Below are positions 39,284-51,388 of a stretch of 64,000 bases of DNA, piece after piece. Both the position numbers and the translations under genes were made by a program. This stretch comes from a virus (lineage: Duplodnaviria; Caudoviricetes), in IMG/VR virus record IMGVR_UViG_3300020045_001617, positions 7,107-71,106 of that record; one strand, 5' to 3'. Under the pieces are notes generated by a model, which was given only the letters and a program-made list of their open reading frames with translations, was not told where the DNA came from and ran no database searches. How positions within the stretch are numbered: position 1 is the stretch's first letter; each line of letters opens with the position of its first letter.

Positions 39284-40439
39284 TCTTGATTCGCTTCGCC
39301 CGTGGGCGACCCCTCGACAGATAGAATACATTGACGGCCTGATTGCCACCGGGAGCCACCGCGCTCTCGCCAAGATGTTGGGCGTGTCACGCGGCAGCAT
39401 TTCCGGGTCGCTGAAGTCTTTGCGCAAACGTGCTGCTGCGCAGGGGTTTTCGCCGGAACACAATTTCACACAACCTGTTCCTGACGGCTTCAAACTCAAG
39501 CGCCACTCCCAGTATTACGACGCTGAGGGTAAGCCGCGTGGTAAGTGGGTCATCGCGACAGCAGACGAACAGCGCCAGAAGGAACTGTTCGACGGTGTTG
39601 TTGCTGCCATGTGTGACGACATTCCCCGCATGTCGCCAGTTGTCGCACCGCAGCAGGGTAACGACAAACTCTGCAACCTGTTCACCATCACCGACTACCA
39701 CGTCGGAATGTTGGCATGGGGTGAAGAAACTGGTGCTGACTGGGATCTGGAAATAGCCGAAGCAACACTGGTCGCGGCATTCTCACACCTGATCGCCAAT
39801 TCCCCCAAAGCCAAAGTGGCTGTGATTAACCAGCTTGGTGATTTCTTGCATTTTGATTCATTCGAAGCTGTTACACCGATGCACAAGCACTTGCTCGACG
39901 CTGATAGCCGTTTCCCCAAGGTGGTGGCTGTAGCCATCAGGTTACTACGTAGAGTGATCGACATGGCGCTCGCAAGCCACGCAGAAGTCAAGTTGTTGAT
40001 TTGTCAAGGCAATCATGATCTATCATCATCAGTGTGGTTGCAGGCAATGTTCACGGCACTATACGAAAACGACCCGCGCATCTCTGTAGATCAGACTGTG
40101 TTGCCATATTACGTTCACCAGCACGGCAAGGTGATGCTTGGCTTCCACCACGGCCACATGAAGAAGAACGAAGGGTTACCGCTTCACTTCGCTGCCAGTT
40201 ACCCAGTGATCTGGGGAACCACAGCCAAGCGGTACGTCCACGTTGGGCATAGACATCACGTCGAAGAGAAGGAACACGCAGGTGTAAAAGTTGTGCAGCA
40301 TAGCACCCTTGCCGCCAAGGACGCTTACGCAGCCCGAGGGGGGTGGTCAAGCGAACGTCAGATGTTGTCGATCACCTATCACTCTGAATTTGGAGAAGTG
40401 GCTAGGGCTACTGTTACCCCTGAGATGCTTTGCGTTTGA
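39267..40439 (+). CDS. Calcineurin-like metallophosphoesterase with N-terminal HTH
   Basis: DYHVG, GDFLH, GNHD, FHHGH and HVGHRHH metal-binding motifs. Confidence 0.8.
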   Translation: MSDTNDLDSLRPWATPRQIEYIDGLIATGSHRALAKMLGVSRGSISGSLKSLRKRAAAQGFSPEHNFTQPVPDGFKLKRHSQYYDAEGKPRGKWVIATADEQRQKELFDGVVAAMCDDIPRMSPVVAPQQGNDKLCNLFTITDYHVGMLAWGEETGADWDLEIAEATLVAAFSHLIANSPKAKVAVINQLGDFLHFDSFEAVTPMHKHLLDADSRFPKVVAVAIRLLRRVIDMALASHAEVKLLICQGNHDLSSSVWLQAMFTALYENDPRISVDQTVLPYYVHQHGKVMLGFHHGHMKKNEGLPLHFAASYPVIWGTTAKRYVHVGHRHHVEEKEHAGVKVVQHSTLAAKDAYAARGGWSSERQMLSITYHSEFGEVARATVTPEMLCV

Positions 40440-41118
40440 TCCAACTTAACCGAACACTTTCTGAACGCTTTTGTCGGGTTTCGTCACTAATGTTTCTGGC
40501 AGATTCGGCACGCCTTGCTCGTAGATTCGGACACTGATTGGTCAATTTCGCAGTTTCAGAACGTTTACGTCGCGTCTCATCTGAAATGTTGCGGGCACGG
40601 TCTGACAATTTTGCACGAGTTTCTGCGCTGGGTGGAGCGCGACCTAAAGCAGCAAGACGCATGTTTTCCTTGTGCTGCTCGGGCAAAGGCTTTCCTATCC
40701 GACTGAGCGATTGGAGGAAGCGCGTGTATTCCGAGACATATCTACCTTTCATTTTTTCCGACATGTGGCGTCGCAACTCGGCAGATTTTGGCGGCATCTT
40801 CAAACCCAGTGTTGTGCCGCCCACCGTGGCAGTATTGTATACTCCGCCCATGTCACTCAGGAGAGCAATCCATTGTGTCTCCATCTGTAACATTTCGCAC
40901 TGAGTTTCACACTCATCAATTACGGTAAACGTAAAAACGTCTTCCCCATGCTTTATCCATGACCGTTGAAGATGTTTGCAATGATGCACTCCGTTGCGTA
41001 GTTGCCATCTATGCGTGGTCCACCTGCTGCGCACTTTCGCACTAGAGCCGACATAGGTTACGCCGGTCCTTGTGTTTTTAATCGTGTAAATCACGAATTT
41101 ATTGATACCCGCAACCAT
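40414..41118 (-). CDS. GIY-YIG homing endonuclease with NUMOD3-like repeats
   Basis: VIYTIKN....YVGSS...RW..H...LR; repeated SDETRRKRSE-type tail. Confidence 0.88.
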   Translation of the reverse strand: MVAGINKFVIYTIKNTRTGVTYVGSSAKVRSRWTTHRWQLRNGVHHCKHLQRSWIKHGEDVFTFTVIDECETQCEMLQMETQWIALLSDMGGVYNTATVGGTTLGLKMPPKSAELRRHMSEKMKGRYVSEYTRFLQSLSRIGKPLPEQHKENMRLAALGRAPPSAETRAKLSDRARNISDETRRKRSETAKLTNQCPNLRARRAESARNISDETRQKRSESVRLSWIKRKASQG

Positions 41119-41196
41119 AAGTTGACGAGTAGCAAAATATCAACCACTATGCAACTTCACGCATTATCGTCCCCCTGAACACCGGGCCTACGCCGT

Positions 41197-41442
41197 ATGA
41201 CCGCAACCCACACCGACGAAGAATGGTACACGCTCGACACGCTGACGTTCCTCGACTGGGATTCGTTCAACCCGCACAACTATACCTGCCAAGTCACGAT
41301 GAAGATTGTCGAGGGGTTGACCTCGACCGGCGACACCGTGGAGGTAGTATATTACGCTACGGGAGATTACGAGGACCGCTGGGTCGATGTTACTGGTACG
41401 ATGCGTGACATCATCTATTGGCGTCCGTGTCGAGACCGTTGA
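41197..41442 (+). CDS. Hypothetical protein
   Basis: 81-aa ORF with plausible composition. Confidence 0.45.
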   Translation: MTATHTDEEWYTLDTLTFLDWDSFNPHNYTCQVTMKIVEGLTSTGDTVEVVYYATGDYEDRWVDVTGTMRDIIYWRPCRDR

Positions 41443-41689
41443 CTGCCAGTTCGATCACCCGCTGGCAAAAGCCGACCTCGACGCCTGTCCACTGACCTTT
41501 TTCGACCATGTCTCGCATCGACGCCGTAAACATACACAACGCTTCCTGTTTCGATGCGAGACAACCTACGACCAGTTCTGCGCGGGTGCGTCCCGTGATG
41601 CAGTCTTCAGCCCAGTTTCCGGTCGCTGCGTCGGACCAGAAGTCCTTGCCGACGATGACGTGCTCTTTACGCAGCGCCACAACATTCAT
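41411..41689 (-). CDS. Hypothetical protein
   Basis: 92-aa ORF at the end of the leftward operon. Confidence 0.5.
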   Translation of the reverse strand: MNVVALRKEHVIVGKDFWSDAATGNWAEDCITGRTRAELVVGCLASKQEALCMFTASMRDMVEKGQWTGVEVGFCQRVIELAVNGLDTDANR

Positions 41690-41748
41690 ACGTGCCCCCT
41701 ACCACCCTGTTGATACATTGAATTGCACCTGTGCGGGTTACTGATTGA

Positions 41749-43759: not shown

Positions 43760-45709
43760 TTAGTCAACCGGCTTCTGTGCGTCCACGATTTCACACGCAT
43801 TCCCGACACAGGCAAACTCGCGCGTCCCTGTTACGGTGTCGATGCCCTTCTCGTAGAACGACAGATCGCCCCAGTCGATGTCCGCAGGCATGGCAGCCAG
43901 CATCGTGTCGTACTGTTCCTTGGTGATCGTCTCATAGGGCATCTGCGTGTAGGTGCTGTCACCTTCGAAGTGCGGCAGGAACGACAGCCCCACCATGTCG
44001 TCAAAGTGGTCGAACACCCAACCACCGACACTCGGCCACTCGTTTTCCTTGACGCTGATAGTGCAGGACATGTTGTGTTCTGCCCAATGCTGGTTGTACG
44101 TTTTGACCAGTTCCAGATGCTCGATGGCCGTAACACCGTCGCGGGTGACGGTGCCTGCACCCAACTTCACGGGGAAACTGAACACGGTCATTTGCTGAGG
44201 CTTGGCGGCGTGTGGTTCGTTGGGGATTCCGGCATCCGACATGAACGCGGTAATCGGGTCTGACGAATCGCCAGTGACGCGACGAATGTAGTATTCAGCG
44301 TGTCCTTGGTGGATACCACTTGGGCAATTCACCAATTGACTGACGGTTCCGCTGGGTTTCCCGCAAGTGGTAGCAGCAGACGGGTTGATGTTCAGATCGT
44401 AGGCAGTAAGACGGTTGGTCTTTACTACCGTTGACTTCATCTTCTCAAGCGCGCTTCCGAGTTTACTGAGTCCGTTGTCTCCGCGCATGAACGCATTGTC
44501 ATAGATGCCGGTCCACGAAACACCGAGAAGGCGTTCGTCTTCTGCGTTCTTCGTCCACTCCGGTTCAACGAAGTTGTAGCGCGTCAAGGTGGACTGCCAC
44601 GTTCCGAGGATGGCAGCGAGACGCGCCTTTTCCTTAAGTTCCGAAACGCTGTCCGTGTCGCGAACGATGCCTTCGGTAAGGTTGCACAGACCACGGGGGC
44701 GAAGGAGGATTTCGCCGCACGGGTTCAAACCGAAGTTGAAACGATGATCGCGGCGACCGAGTTTCAGGATCTTGTGAACCGCACCGTCACGATTGAAGAT
44801 GCCGCGTTCGCCTGAACGACTGCGGTACAGCGACGACCATTCGTCCATGAACTGTCCGACTTCGGGCTTCTCGGTATAGGCTACGCTGTTGTTCGCTAGT
44901 GCCAGATGCGGCTTGTCCGACCACCAGCTTCCTGACTTCGCATCGCGCATCCGCTGATCGGAGAGGTTTGACAGACTGATGAGTGCAGAACGACGCACAC
45001 CTCCGACGACGACGATTTCACCCGTCTTGCAGACCAGTTCATGCACTTCGAGGCTGTTGAGGCGACGACCCGCTGCATGGCGAAACATGCGGATGGTAAA
45101 CTCAAACAGGTCGCGCAGCGGATCAGGACCGGAGGCGCGACCCCCGAACACCTTCAACCGTTCACCTGCTGGTCGAACCTGCGAGTAGTCGATAGTAGGA
45201 AGGCGACCGGCGTAAAGATGATTGATGAGTTGTTCAAACGCATCGGCCCAACCCATCTTCGAGTCACCAACGACGATTTCATAGGCGACCTTGCTGAAGT
45301 CAGCAGGCACTTCTGGCAGATTGGCGATTTCTTGCCGTTCGCAGGAGAAGCCGACGCCGGTTCCGCATAGCAGCACGTAGAGCGCTTCAGCGAAAGCGCG
45401 AGGGCGGTCGATAGGGAGATATGAACAGTTGAATCCTGCAATGTTCTCGCGCTTCAACGCTTCACCAGCAGTCATCAAGGCACGCATTGATGGCATGATT
45501 GCAAGATTTAGAACAGCGTCTTCCAGTTCGGAACGCAGACTCTGCGTGACGGTGTAGCCGTTATGCTCGGCCAGTTCTGCTTCGAAGAAGTCGAAATAGC
45601 GACCAACTGTTTCATGCCAGTGTTCGCGGCGTCCGAGGTCGTCGCGGAAGCGCGCGTACCTGCTTTTCGCGATGTAGTTTTGATAATCGGTCGGAAGAGA
45701 CACAGACAT
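43760..45709 (-). CDS. nrdJ: Class II (adenosylcobalamin-dependent) ribonucleotide reductase, monomeric type
   Basis: PSMRALMTAG, GGVRRSALI, NPCGEILL..CNL, KPSGTVS and C-terminal FACVGNACE; AGGGAG RBS. Confidence 0.93.
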   Translation of the reverse strand: MSVSLPTDYQNYIAKSRYARFRDDLGRREHWHETVGRYFDFFEAELAEHNGYTVTQSLRSELEDAVLNLAIMPSMRALMTAGEALKRENIAGFNCSYLPIDRPRAFAEALYVLLCGTGVGFSCERQEIANLPEVPADFSKVAYEIVVGDSKMGWADAFEQLINHLYAGRLPTIDYSQVRPAGERLKVFGGRASGPDPLRDLFEFTIRMFRHAAGRRLNSLEVHELVCKTGEIVVVGGVRRSALISLSNLSDQRMRDAKSGSWWSDKPHLALANNSVAYTEKPEVGQFMDEWSSLYRSRSGERGIFNRDGAVHKILKLGRRDHRFNFGLNPCGEILLRPRGLCNLTEGIVRDTDSVSELKEKARLAAILGTWQSTLTRYNFVEPEWTKNAEDERLLGVSWTGIYDNAFMRGDNGLSKLGSALEKMKSTVVKTNRLTAYDLNINPSAATTCGKPSGTVSQLVNCPSGIHQGHAEYYIRRVTGDSSDPITAFMSDAGIPNEPHAAKPQQMTVFSFPVKLGAGTVTRDGVTAIEHLELVKTYNQHWAEHNMSCTISVKENEWPSVGGWVFDHFDDMVGLSFLPHFEGDSTYTQMPYETITKEQYDTMLAAMPADIDWGDLSFYEKGIDTVTGTREFACVGNACEIVDAQKPVD

Positions 45710-45780
45710 AGATACTCCCTGCTTCGGTGGTCGTTGGTACAATATGTAGTGGAACAGTCACGAATATAGTGAAACGCCGC

Positions 45781-46437
45781 TCAAAGCAACATCTCTGGCC
45801 GAATTACCGTAGACCCTTTGGGGGTGCGACCGTAACCCATGGCCTGTAGTTCCATGGCTTTGTCGATCATGCGATACAGGTCACGCAGCGACCCGGTGTT
45901 GTGGATCAGGAAGTCGGGGTTCAACCGGTCCACGCGCTCGGAATCGTGGACGCCGCGCATGATGCCGAAGGTCTGGTAGAGCCACTTGCCGACGCCACCC
46001 TTGAACGCAGCAGGACCGGCACCGGGTCGCACGATCATGATCGTCAGGCCGTTGCGTCGCCGGATACCATCTTCCTCGTTGGGGAAGCGAACGGAGTCGT
46101 TCATGGCAAGACCACTGGGTATCCGCGACGCACGCGCTTCCCAGCAACGCTGCCACAAGTCGGGGTGGATCTGGTTGCGCCCCCACTCGGTTCCGAGGGT
46201 GATCTGCGCATGGCGAGACGTGACTCCCAGTTCGGGGATGACTTCCTCCTTCAGCGGACCTTCGAGGTATGCCCAAACGTCATTTCGGTTGTAACCAAAA
46301 TCGGAGAGAAGGGAGTCAAGCATCTTACGCAACGGATCTGCGATGTGCAGTCGCGTGTAGCCGTATTCTGATTGCAGGTATTCTGCGGCGGTGGTTTTAC
46401 CTGACTTGGCGAAACCTGATAATCCGATTGCTGTCAT
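45781..46437 (-). CDS. Deoxynucleoside monophosphate kinase
   Basis: GLSGFAKSGKTT, TLGTEWGR and DSVRFPNE motifs. Confidence 0.9.
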   Translation of the reverse strand: MTAIGLSGFAKSGKTTAAEYLQSEYGYTRLHIADPLRKMLDSLLSDFGYNRNDVWAYLEGPLKEEVIPELGVTSRHAQITLGTEWGRNQIHPDLWQRCWEARASRIPSGLAMNDSVRFPNEEDGIRRRNGLTIMIVRPGAGPAAFKGGVGKWLYQTFGIMRGVHDSERVDRLNPDFLIHNTGSLRDLYRMIDKAMELQAMGYGRTPKGSTVIRPEMLL

Positions 46438-49127: not shown

Positions 49128-49476
49128 CGAAAATGGATTCGAACTCATCAGCAACAGGTGCAACCCGTCCCGCGAGAGCGTCTAGTATCCGATCCAGTTC
49201 GGCATCACAGCGACCTGACTTCCGGTAGGCGTCTTCCATTGCAGCGAGAGACGTTTTTCCCTTACCGTCAGCAAGGTGCCAGCTTTGCCAACCACCGTGT
49301 GTCGTCTTGGTCAGCGTGAACGCCGTAGCCTGCCCCTGCTTGATGTTGTCGAAATAGAGACCCCGCTTCCCCGCCTCCTTGTGGAAGTCCTTCCAGTGTT
49401 GCGACTTGCGCAGCAGTTCCACTTCAGGATCGGGCTTGAAAAACATCGAGTCACTGACCAGCGTTAGGGGTTTCAC
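49123..49476 (-). CDS. Hypothetical protein
   Basis: 117 aa; ends EFESIFD. Confidence 0.6.
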
Positions 49477-50471
49477 TTAGACACCTCTGCCCGAATTGCA
49501 GGATGCGGATCGTAGTTTTCCAGCGTGAAGTCCGTCCACTCGTAACTTCCGTCAAGGATCGACTTTCCTTCGCTGTTGATGCGCAACGTGGGCGAAACCA
49601 CCGGCAGACGCTTGCACTGTTCGATGGCCTGCTCGACGTGATTGGCGTACAAATGAACATCGCCAAACGAATGCACGAAGTCACCAACTTCAAGTCCCAC
49701 CTCGGCTGCGATCAAGTGCGTCAGCAGTGCGTAGCTGGCGATATTGAAGGGTACGCCAAGGAACACGTCAGCCGAACGCTGGTAGAGTTGGCACGAAAGT
49801 CGCCCGTCACTGACGAAGAACTGGAACAGGCAGTGACACGGTGGCAGCGCCATGTCGTCAATCTCAGCCGGGTTCCACGCTGTCACGATGTGGCGGCGTG
49901 AGTGTGGATCGCTTTTTAGGGCTTCGACGACGTTGCGTATCTGGTCGATTTCTGGAAAGCCGGTTGTCGGATGATATTCACCCTGCCAACTGCGCCACTG
50001 CGCACCATAGACCGGTCCAAGTTCTCCATCGGGTGAAGACCACTCGTTCCAGATCGTCACACCGCGCCCTTGCAGGTAACGGACATTCGTTTCGCCACGA
50101 AGGAACCAGAGTAATTCGACCGCCACGGACTTCCAGTGGACCTTCTTCGTCGTCAGCAATGGGAAGCCCTTGCGCAGATTAAAGCGCATCTGGTGACCGA
50201 AGAGTCCGTAGGTTCCGCCGTTACGACCTTCACGATAGACTCCGGTACGGCGCACCGTGTCGAGCAATTCAAGATATGGATGGTCGTGGTAAATGCTGCT
50301 CGCAGTTTCCACAGGTAACAGGGCAGCCTCGGGGTAGATTTGCACAGAACCGACTTCCCTTTCGCTTTCGACATCCCAGCCCTGTTCGGTCAAGTCGGTG
50401 CTGTATTGTCCGACGATACGACCGTGCCAGTCGGAGCCGGACTTCTTCTTTACGCGGTCACCGATCTGCAT
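49473..50471 (-). CDS. thyA: Fusion: R67/DfrB-type dihydrofolate reductase domain + thymidylate synthase
   Basis: N-terminal [27 protein letters not shown]...[11 protein letters not shown]; ThyA motifs [34 protein letters not shown]. Confidence 0.92.
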
Positions 50472-50686
50472 CAATTCTCTCCCATCCAACGAAACACGTC
50501 ACGCTGCGTCGGGTCGCGGCGGTAACTATGTGTGGTGACCATCAGGTCGCGGAACGCCTTGGTCGCGTTCGACAGCAACGTGGTCGGCAGCGGTCTTGTC
50601 AGCGTCACGTAGTCGCCGCCATCCCACTTCATATCGACGTTGTTATGTGGACCGCCGACGAGGCGGATGCGTTCGAAGTCGGTCAT
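50471..50686 (-). CDS. Hypothetical protein
   Basis: 71 aa, coupled to thyA. Confidence 0.55.
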
Positions 50687-51090
50687 GCTTCGTCCTCCGA
50701 CCCAGCGTAATGGATGGTGGGTTCGTCCGCTTCCTCGTATCGGCTATAACCGATCATCGTACGGAAGCCCTCGTCCACCACGTACGGCGACAACCAATCT
50801 ATCAGATGCTCGATTTCACTGTCATAGTTCTTCAGGTCGCATCGCACCACGAGACACCAGTGCTTACCGATGTCGTCATATGATAATTGCTGAACCGATA
50901 CCGGCGTGAAGTAGTGGCTGCATGAATGGAACATCCAATCCCAGCGACTCGTGTCAAACAGCGGATGGTTTGGCAGAGTGGCGGGTAGGGTTCCCTGAGT
51001 TTTACCCTCGACCATGTATTGCAGAACCTCAACCACGGTGGAGTCGTTCTTGATGCGACAAGACAGAACCAATTCAGTATACATACCCAT
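50683..51090 (-). CDS. Hypothetical conserved phage protein
   Basis: MGMYTELVL...LKNYDSEIE..IDWLSPY pattern; AGGGAG RBS. Confidence 0.65.
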   Translation of the reverse strand: MGMYTELVLSCRIKNDSTVVEVLQYMVEGKTQGTLPATLPNHPLFDTSRWDWMFHSCSHYFTPVSVQQLSYDDIGKHWCLVVRCDLKNYDSEIEHLIDWLSPYVVDEGFRTMIGYSRYEEADEPTIHYAGSEDEA

Positions 51091-51115: not shown

Positions 51116-51388
51116 TCAACCGTAACGTGAAACACGGGACATGCAAGATTTAATCGCCTGCCACGGCGACCTCCCATCGAACGCGCGTCGGAGGACATAC
51201 TGTCGCGCGATGCTGACGATTGTAAATATCGCTGTGATGGACAGACTGGTGGTCGCCGTCATCTGGATGCCGTAGAGCCGCGCGACGACGATCCACGTTA
51301 CCAGCGACACCAGAAACCCGATGGCGGTGTTGGTCAGGCTCTCGCAAAAGCTGTCGATGCGTGACTGGGTGTGTGCGGGACGGTTCAT
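51116..51388 (-). CDS. Small membrane protein
   Basis: QSRIDSFCESLTNTAIGF followed by two TM segments. Confidence 0.65.
   Translation of the reverse strand: MNRPAHTQSRIDSFCESLTNTAIGFLVSLVTWIVVARLYGIQMTATTSLSITAIFTIVSIARQYVLRRAFDGRSPWQAIKSCMSRVSRYG

Follow-up and report, generated by a model that had tools for sequence, protein, structure and literature searches.

The question raised by this locus is whether the thymidylate synthase (ThyA) gene of a siphovirus encodes, in the same chain, an R67-type (DfrB) dihydrofolate reductase (DHFR), and what such a protein would do for the phage. The gene is located in a stretch of 64,000 nucleotides (the window), which corresponds to bases 7107 to 71106 of a 71,106-bp IMG/VR virus record rated complete by CheckV. 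A sequence-only reading of the window had reported that the first ~54 residues of ThyA align with the R67 core, with an intact VQIY motif, and had proposed a search with the DHFR_2 profile. That search matched residues 2 to 52 of the protein (P0001) with 66.1 bits, against a cut-off of 25 (Pfam PF06442; E = 2.5e-18), and a six-frame search of the record gave 70.8 bits for the same profile. The R67 DHFR chains 1vie, 2rk1, and 6ny0 matched residues 3 to 52 with an E value of 6e-16 (phmmer against the PDB). Matches of this strength lie far outside what chance would give. The interval given for the domain, 50310-50471, was correct and encodes residues 1 to 54. The features of the locus are collected in Table 1.

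A hand count on the phmmer alignment gives the N domain an identity of about 64% to the core of R67. All 19 columns that are invariant among 36 standalone homologues are conserved in it, including the equivalents of K32 (K9), W38 (W15), V66, Q67, and Y69 of R67. The equivalents of S65 and I68, which occupy nearly invariant columns, are also present (S42-V43-Q44-I45-Y46). The R67 residue numbers used here agree with the offsets of the PDB chains in the alignment. At the position of R67 H62, the protein has E39. We rejected the view that this substitution is a defect, because Glu is the commonest residue at that position among homologues and the majority state in the environmental ones (ESERE.GSVQIYP). 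In the AlphaFold2 (AF2) monomer model, the N domain forms five β-strands (residues 6-9, 16-24, 30-36, 42-45, and 51-53; pLDDT 71-79), that is, the SH3-like five-stranded barrel of the R67 family.

The isolated N domain (residues 1 to 60) is predicted to form an R67-like homotetramer with a central pore. Complex prediction with four copies gave an ipSAE of 0.92, versus 0.01 for the best of three controls; among proteins of known structure, 20 of 30 homomers and 1 of 23 single chains attained the mark set for this score. The runs agreed in at least 95% of the contacts, with pLDDT values of at least 86. The two interfaces in the prediction (residues 20-28/33/35/41/43/45 and 12-16/36/38-44) correspond to the monomer-monomer and dimer-dimer surfaces of R67. 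Since R67 structures have already been solved, the prediction may be a recall of these structures and shows likeness rather than proof of assembly.

The remainder of the protein is a full-length thymidylate synthase. Profile PF00303 (Thymidylat_synt) matched residues 65 to 331 with 359.5 bits over profile positions 2 to 265 of 266, and solved ThyA structures matched this half end to end (phmmer, E values of 1e-97 to 1e-100). The ThyA model superimposed on the E. coli and M. tuberculosis enzymes with TM scores of 0.92 to 0.94 at 55 to 58% identity (Foldseek). The motifs of the family are present, with the catalytic Cys212 in PPCH, RRH at 192-194, and QRSAD at 231-235, the latter two holding the arginines for the dUMP phosphate, and the invariant residues C212, R192, R193, R232, S233, D235, N243, H273, and Y275 are all kept. 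The full-length AF2 monomer (mean pLDDT 85.6, pTM 0.82) consists of the N domain, a linker of lower confidence, and the ThyA domain.

Table 1. Features of the fusion locus and of its surroundings, in coordinates of the window.
Feature	Position	Strand	Remarks
DfrB-ThyA fusion gene (P0001)	49473..50471	-	332 codons plus stop; two Pfam domains in one frame
DfrB (R67-type, cluster I) SH3-like domain, residues 1-52	50316..50471	-	PF06442, R67 PDB chains, invariant columns, AF2 strands
Active-site β4 motif VQIY, residues 43-46 (R67 V66-Y69)	50334..50345	-	Codons GTG CAA ATC TAC; aligned to R67
Linker, residues 53-64	50280..50315	-	Between the Pfam envelopes; lowest pLDDT block (64); same in P0002
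ThyA domain, residues 65-332	49476..50279	-	PF00303, phmmer, Foldseek, invariant columns
Lineage-specific insert relative to syntenic sister phages (residues 1-60), 179 bp	50292..50470	-	blastn/tblastx of L027 and L033
Upstream 71-aa gene, function unknown	50471..50686	-	Stop overlaps the fusion ATG; kept in sister phages
Ribonucleotide reductase	43760..45742	-	phrog_367, E = 3.5e-170
dNMP kinase	45781..46437	-	phrog_139, E = 1e-37
P4-type tyrosine integrase, complete	9584-10738	+	Arm-DNA-bind_3, Phage_int_M, Phage_integrase

We propose that the fusion protein is a bifunctional, trimethoprim-insensitive DHFR-thymidylate synthase (DHFR-TS) that works in the dTMP synthesis of the phage, its assembly relying on the DfrB tetramer and the ThyA dimer. 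The sequence analyses show the family membership and motifs of both domains, their genomic context, the lack of another DHFR or of ThyX, the conservation of the fusion, and where the insert came in; we infer catalysis, stoichiometry, and drug insensitivity, and we assign this reading a probability of about 0.85. The C-terminal ThyA would methylate dUMP to dTMP, with release of dihydrofolate. Four of the N-terminal 52-residue DfrB domains would form an R67-like tetramer, whose central pore would reduce dihydrofolate to tetrahydrofolate with NADPH, and the phage would run its thymidylate cycle without a FolA of its own. The reductase half should be insensitive to trimethoprim because DfrB enzymes are intrinsically so. 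Tetramers or larger assemblies of the protein are to be expected, given that ThyA dimerizes and DfrB tetramerizes. Profile searches of the whole 71-kb record detected neither a FolA-type DHFR (PF00186), also absent from the fusion protein itself, nor ThyX (PF02511), and found a single DfrB domain and a single ThyA domain.

A protein of the same architecture, DfrB-TS (BBD027md-00173_03685), was reported in September 2025 (Mol Biol Evol 2025;42:msaf215; PMC12486381). The published enzyme displayed dihydrofolate reductase and thymidylate synthase activities, conferred a trimethoprim-resistance phenotype in E. coli, and eluted as tetramers and octamers in size exclusion chromatography (PMC12486381). 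It belongs to cluster II, carries the motif LHIY, and is 31% identical to DfrB1; the motif VQIY occurs exclusively in cluster I, to which the clinical enzymes DfrB1-10 belong, and the VQIY homologues tested were catalytic (PMC12486381). NADPH-dependent, trimethoprim-insensitive reduction of dihydrofolate has been demonstrated both with the LHIY fusion and with other VQIY homologues of cluster I (PMC12486381). For viral genomes that lack FolA and have dfrB linked to thyA, the same study argued that dfrB serves dTMP synthesis, and it pointed out the convergence of DfrB-TS with eukaryotic DHFR-TS (PMC12486381). Three further proposals of the sequence-only reading are in line with these data. A native phage role is supported by the lack of another DHFR and of ThyX in the phage and by the published argument, and a higher-order assembly by the predicted tetramer of the N domain and the published oligomers (PMC12486381). 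A bifunctional enzyme convergent with that of protozoa is supported by the full-length domains, the catalytic motifs, and the absence of PF00186, the activity of the present protein being putative.

Alternatively, the N domain could be mainly an oligomerization or tethering module for ThyA and not a reductase of physiological relevance, with dihydrofolate recycled by the host FolA. A native role of DfrB domains in protein-protein interaction, with the fusions exploiting multimerization, has indeed been proposed, and DfrB enzymes are catalytically poor, with kcat/KM values of 0.007 to 0.17 (PMC12486381). In addition, a sister phage contig (L027) encodes an unfused thyA and no DHFR detected in a record that is 71% complete; since this phage manages in such a way, the reductase may be dispensable. 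We nevertheless consider a purely structural role unlikely, because the protein retains all positions that line the pore or form the active site in the catalytic cluster I, whereas a scaffold would need neither K32 nor S65-VQIY. Furthermore, all seven fusions tested were functional reductases (PMC12486381), and three subtypes of the domain are fused specifically to the enzyme that produces dihydrofolate, which favors a catalytic link.

The genomic context bears on what a bifunctional DHFR-TS would be used for. The plus strand of the phage encodes a DNA polymerase, a helicase, a portal, a major head protein, a tape measure, and a tail protein (PHROGs), and the fusion gene sits in a minus-strand nucleotide-metabolism module together with the ribonucleotide reductase (RNR) and the dNMP kinase. 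Just upstream of the fusion locus, two conserved genes of unknown function (50686-51090, minus strand, phrog_4334; 51119-51388, minus strand, phrog_4276) are syntenic in L027 and in a second sister contig, L033. The portal is 53 to 55% identical to those of Achromobacter phage AchV4 and Ruegeria DSS3-P1-like phages. Among cellular ThyA proteins, the closest come from alphaproteobacteria (Sphingomonas, Agrobacterium, Novosphingobium, Ensifer, and Rhizobium; 64 to 68%). Tentatively, a proteobacterium is the probable host, perhaps an alphaproteobacterium. The integrase gene has tail-like genes on one side and the packaging/head module on the other, in a phage otherwise equipped with a DNA polymerase, a helicase, and an RNR of its own. 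Because this P4-type tyrosine integrase is complete, a temperate lifestyle, as remarked in the sequence-only reading, is plausible.

Temperate behavior would be compatible with a different use of the fusion gene, namely, as lysogenic-conversion cargo carried mainly to provide the lysogen with a trimethoprim-insensitive DHFR. The integrase, with its arm-binding, central, and catalytic domains, and the membership of the domain in the branch of the clinical DfrB1-10 enzymes both speak for this possibility. We regard it as most unlikely, since the gene is placed within the minus-strand early/nucleotide-metabolism block, co-oriented with the RNR and dNMP kinase genes, and not at a moron position close to an attachment site, with no repressor or lysogeny-module context seen near it. 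It is also translationally coupled to a conserved phage gene, and its fusion to thyA makes sense for phage DNA synthesis.

The coupling takes the form of a stop-start overlap. In the sequence TGATG, the stop codon of the upstream 71-aa gene (TGA) shares its A with the ATG of the fusion gene (50471-50469), and a Shine-Dalgarno sequence (GGGAGAG, 50483-50477) is located 6 nt ahead of the ATG. The fusion gene is thus translationally coupled to the 71-aa gene, and the ATG at 50471 is its likely start because of the Shine-Dalgarno sequence and the overlap, two features for which the TTG at 50489 listed by the ORF finder was rejected. From this ATG, a single uninterrupted open reading frame encodes the 332 residues. 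A thymidylate synthase-only product initiated internally was also rejected, since no further Met intervenes from residue 1 up to residue 95.

The same fused architecture, with a continuous frame and the same linker, was found in an independent metagenomic protein (P0002) encoded on a 1.5-kb contig and 85% identical to the phage protein overall (83% for the N domain and 86% for the thymidylate synthase). Because P0002 shares architecture and linker independently, the fusion is not an assembly artefact and, judged from the two proteins, is real. That a stop codon lost or a frameshift introduced in sequencing or assembly joined separate genes is barely credible: dfrB and thyA do occur as separate neighbors in other phages, at L127 and as a published pair 5 bp apart (PMC12486381), but the linker contains neither a Met or other plausible internal start nor a remnant stop, the frame is equally unbroken in P0002, and DfrB-like/ThyA fusions of two other subtypes number at least 44.

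How the fusion arose can be approached through phages of the same kind. Comparison of the 12 kb around the gene with deposited phages by megablast gave zero matches. The IMG/VR contig L027, which encodes an unfused thymidylate synthase (P0174), is syntenic with the window on both sides of the fusion locus. The homology of L027 and L033 to the window stops at 50471, at the stop of the upstream small gene, and restarts at 50291, at residue 61 (blastn and tblastx). The slot measures 527 bp in L027, with two unrelated small open reading frames and a stop 2 codons before the thyA start; in the window, it is filled by the 179 bp of the DfrB domain and linker.

Phylogenetic analysis is compatible with these breakpoints. 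In a 128-row thymidylate synthase tree, the phage protein, P0002, and the unfused P0173 and P0174 formed a clade with 99% support, nested in a clade (97%) that mixes EHIF-type fusions with unfused synthases, and all LHIY-type fusions were placed across a branch with 96% support. The N domains of the phage protein and of P0002 paired with 99% support in their own tree, and they are 50 to 77% identical to standalone cluster I DfrB proteins, versus 22 to 33% to the other fused types. Because the syntenic sister phages have an unfused thyA, the simplest reading is that this fusion was a recent event, distinct from the one behind the LHIY type. A standalone cluster I (VQIY) dfrB would have been inserted recently, in frame and directly 5′ of thyA, in this lineage, with a donor that, like P0027 and P0028, had M-[QK]-IGDRV as its very N terminus. 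The LHIY-type linker contains a conserved Met (GNMADHQYL) that aligns with the N terminus of the unfused X2_30 thymidylate synthase, which suggests a different route for that type, in which an adjacent upstream gene was read through into the old thyA start.

Searches for homologues revealed fusions of two other subtypes. With the full protein as the query (tblastn), Rhizobium phages RHEph10, N1_10, N1_15, and N2_6 matched residues 5 to 332 (RHEph10 fusion, L003:3983-4999, JX483881.1 61483-62499; RHph_N1_10 fusion, L004:3983-4978). In these four cultured phages, thyA is annotated ~50 codons too late, at an internal Met, and the 187-nt "intergenic" gap ahead of it encodes, in frame, an SH3-like LHIY domain whose start codon is TTG and whose ribosome-binding site is AAGGA. 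As gene callers overlook TTG starts, as in RHEph10, some of the synthases counted here as unfused may in fact be fused. The LHIY domain is below the detection limit of the Pfam DHFR_2 profile. On the basis of the shared LHIY and of the low identity to DfrB1, we equate these proteins with the published type, of which the RHEph10-type phages would carry an unannotated DfrB-TS. A word-index search with the LHIY domain retrieved 19 further fusions of this type, all labeled as thymidylate synthase alone. A search with the thymidylate synthase half of the phage protein retrieved a third type of fused N domain, which is shorter, SH3-like, and characterized by the motif GW[E/D/Q]HIF, in 18 proteins (including P0176, P0179, P0181, P0184-P0186, P0192, P0195, P0196, P0200, P0205, P0211, P0227, P0234, P0256, P0272, and P0282). 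HHalign probabilities were 98.7% for LHIY versus EHIF and 95.5 to 96% for both types versus cluster I (96% over the first 26 columns for EHIF), and by this comparison the three types of fused N domains (VQIY, LHIY, and GW[E/D/Q]HIF) are homologous.

Fusion of the canonical VQIY domain appears to be the exception. P0002 was the sole other VQIY-type fusion among the matches listed. None of 20 IMG/VR loci with a canonical DfrB domain was fused or had ThyA within 3 kb, and none of 51 genome or metagenome loci, drawn from the best 80 of at least 600 stretches, was fused. Of these 51 loci, only one has a ThyA nearby (L127, metagenome contig Ga0164243_10033960, 2054-3153); there, a separate canonical dfrB gene is located 38 nt after thyA, in an order that is the reverse of the domain order in the fusion protein. 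In most cluster I homologues, the DfrB domain is C-terminal, whereas it is N-terminal in the phage protein, which counts against the bifunctional reading. A search of 1.84 billion representatives with residues 1 to 110 returned none spanning both halves, a search that cannot count fusions because at 50% identity the fused proteins are absorbed into ordinary ThyA clusters.

Other departures from the usual domain layouts were observed among the homologues. P0024 (1596 aa) has 12 separate DfrB-domain matches (39% identity), apparently tandem DfrB-like SH3 repeats. Two ThyA homologues, P0242 (463 aa) and P0255 (494 aa), have an insertion of ~200 residues after about residue 85, which may be an intein or an endonuclease; P0255 also has an EHIF-type N domain. 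Three others (P0187, P0218, and P0239) have N-terminal extensions of 45 to 70 residues that are apparently helical and not DfrB-like, and the N terminus of ThyA seems to be a hotspot for added domains. In the sister contig L033 (4289-5221), thyA homology ends at residue ~98 and is followed by sequence related to positions 40077-41698 of the window, which suggests a rearrangement or a mobile endonuclease cassette. The window contains an open reading frame for a GIY-YIG endonuclease at 40414-41118 (minus strand), and Rfam detected no group I intron in L027, in L033, or in positions 38 to 52 kb of the window.

It is an even bet, in our view, that DfrB-type SH3 domains were acquired by thymidylate synthases of phages several times over, in independent events, in at least three subtypes (VQIY, LHIY, and GW[E/D/Q]HIF), with gains and losses interleaved on the thymidylate synthase tree and with the window holding the most recent event, between syntenic fused and unfused sisters. 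If so, infecting phages would be under strong, recurrent selection to keep the step that makes dihydrofolate physically coupled to the one that reduces it. Integrase-bearing phages would house the clinically relevant DfrB fold of cluster I natively and in mobile form, and the published "bacterial" DfrB-TS would really be a phage gene.

These results bear on the origin of the plasmid- and integron-borne DfrB genes for trimethoprim resistance. The complete phage genome, in which a VQIY-type DfrB is joined to ThyA and no other DHFR is encoded, is direct genomic evidence of a native metabolic task for the clinical branch, which would be the recycling of the dihydrofolate made by the phage thymidylate synthase. 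The fused and unfused sister phages amount to a clean natural experiment on the birth of a bifunctional enzyme, and the three fused subtypes add to the evidence for a recurrence of DfrB-ThyA fusion in phages. In practical terms, the GenBank annotations of the cultured phages RHEph10, N1_10, N1_15, and N2_6 hide a reductase domain, a systematic annotation error.

Several known systems share part of this design. The T4-like frd-td genes of Rhizobium phages RHph_N34 and Y68 also provide a phage thymidylate cycle with linked DHFR and thymidylate synthase, but as two genes and with a FolA-type DHFR. The DHFR-TS enzymes of protozoa, plants, and giant viruses resemble the fusion protein in combining, in one chain, an N-terminal DHFR and a C-terminal ThyA-type synthase for consecutive reactions. 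However, their reductase domain is of the FolA type (PF00186), which the phage protein lacks, is monomeric per chain, and is antifolate sensitive. Thus, the likeness to the protozoan enzymes is convergent and not homologous.

Standalone phage dfrB genes, some of them beside thyA (Rhizobium phages RHph_N3_2 and TM3_3_3, Sinorhizobium phage phiM9, and Ochrobactrum phage ZX86; IMG/VR loci L006-L025; L127) encode the same domain with 57 to 73% identity. They occur in tailed phages of Proteobacteria, presumably with the same role in thymidylate recycling, but as separate small genes. R67 DHFR (DfrB1; 1vie and 2rk1) belongs to the same family and cluster and shares K32, W38, S65, VQIY, and the two predicted interfaces. 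It differs in being a standalone plasmid- or integron-encoded protein of 78 residues with a disordered N-terminal tail, whereas the phage domain starts at residue 1 and is followed by a ThyA of ~270 to 280 residues.

The closest system is DfrB-TS (PMC12486381), in which a DfrB-type SH3 domain at the N terminus is joined by a short linker to ThyA at the C terminus, likewise with a proposed coupling of consecutive steps of the folate cycle. It shares the architecture of the phage protein but is not its orthologue, since it belongs to cluster II (LHIY) and the phage protein to cluster I (VQIY, detectable with Pfam DHFR_2). LHIY-type N domains are only 22 to 33% identical to that of the phage protein and escape Pfam detection, the thymidylate synthase domains of the two types are separated by the 96%-supported branch, and the linker of the phage protein, devoid of Met, is 4 residues longer than that of the LHIY type. 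DfrB-TS was described as bacterial (PMC12486381), whereas the present fusion is encoded by a complete phage genome. The core idea of a bifunctional DfrB-type DHFR-TS has already been published with biochemistry, and the protein described here is a further, separately arisen example that represents an incremental gain; what is new is a canonical cluster I fusion beside unfused sister phages.
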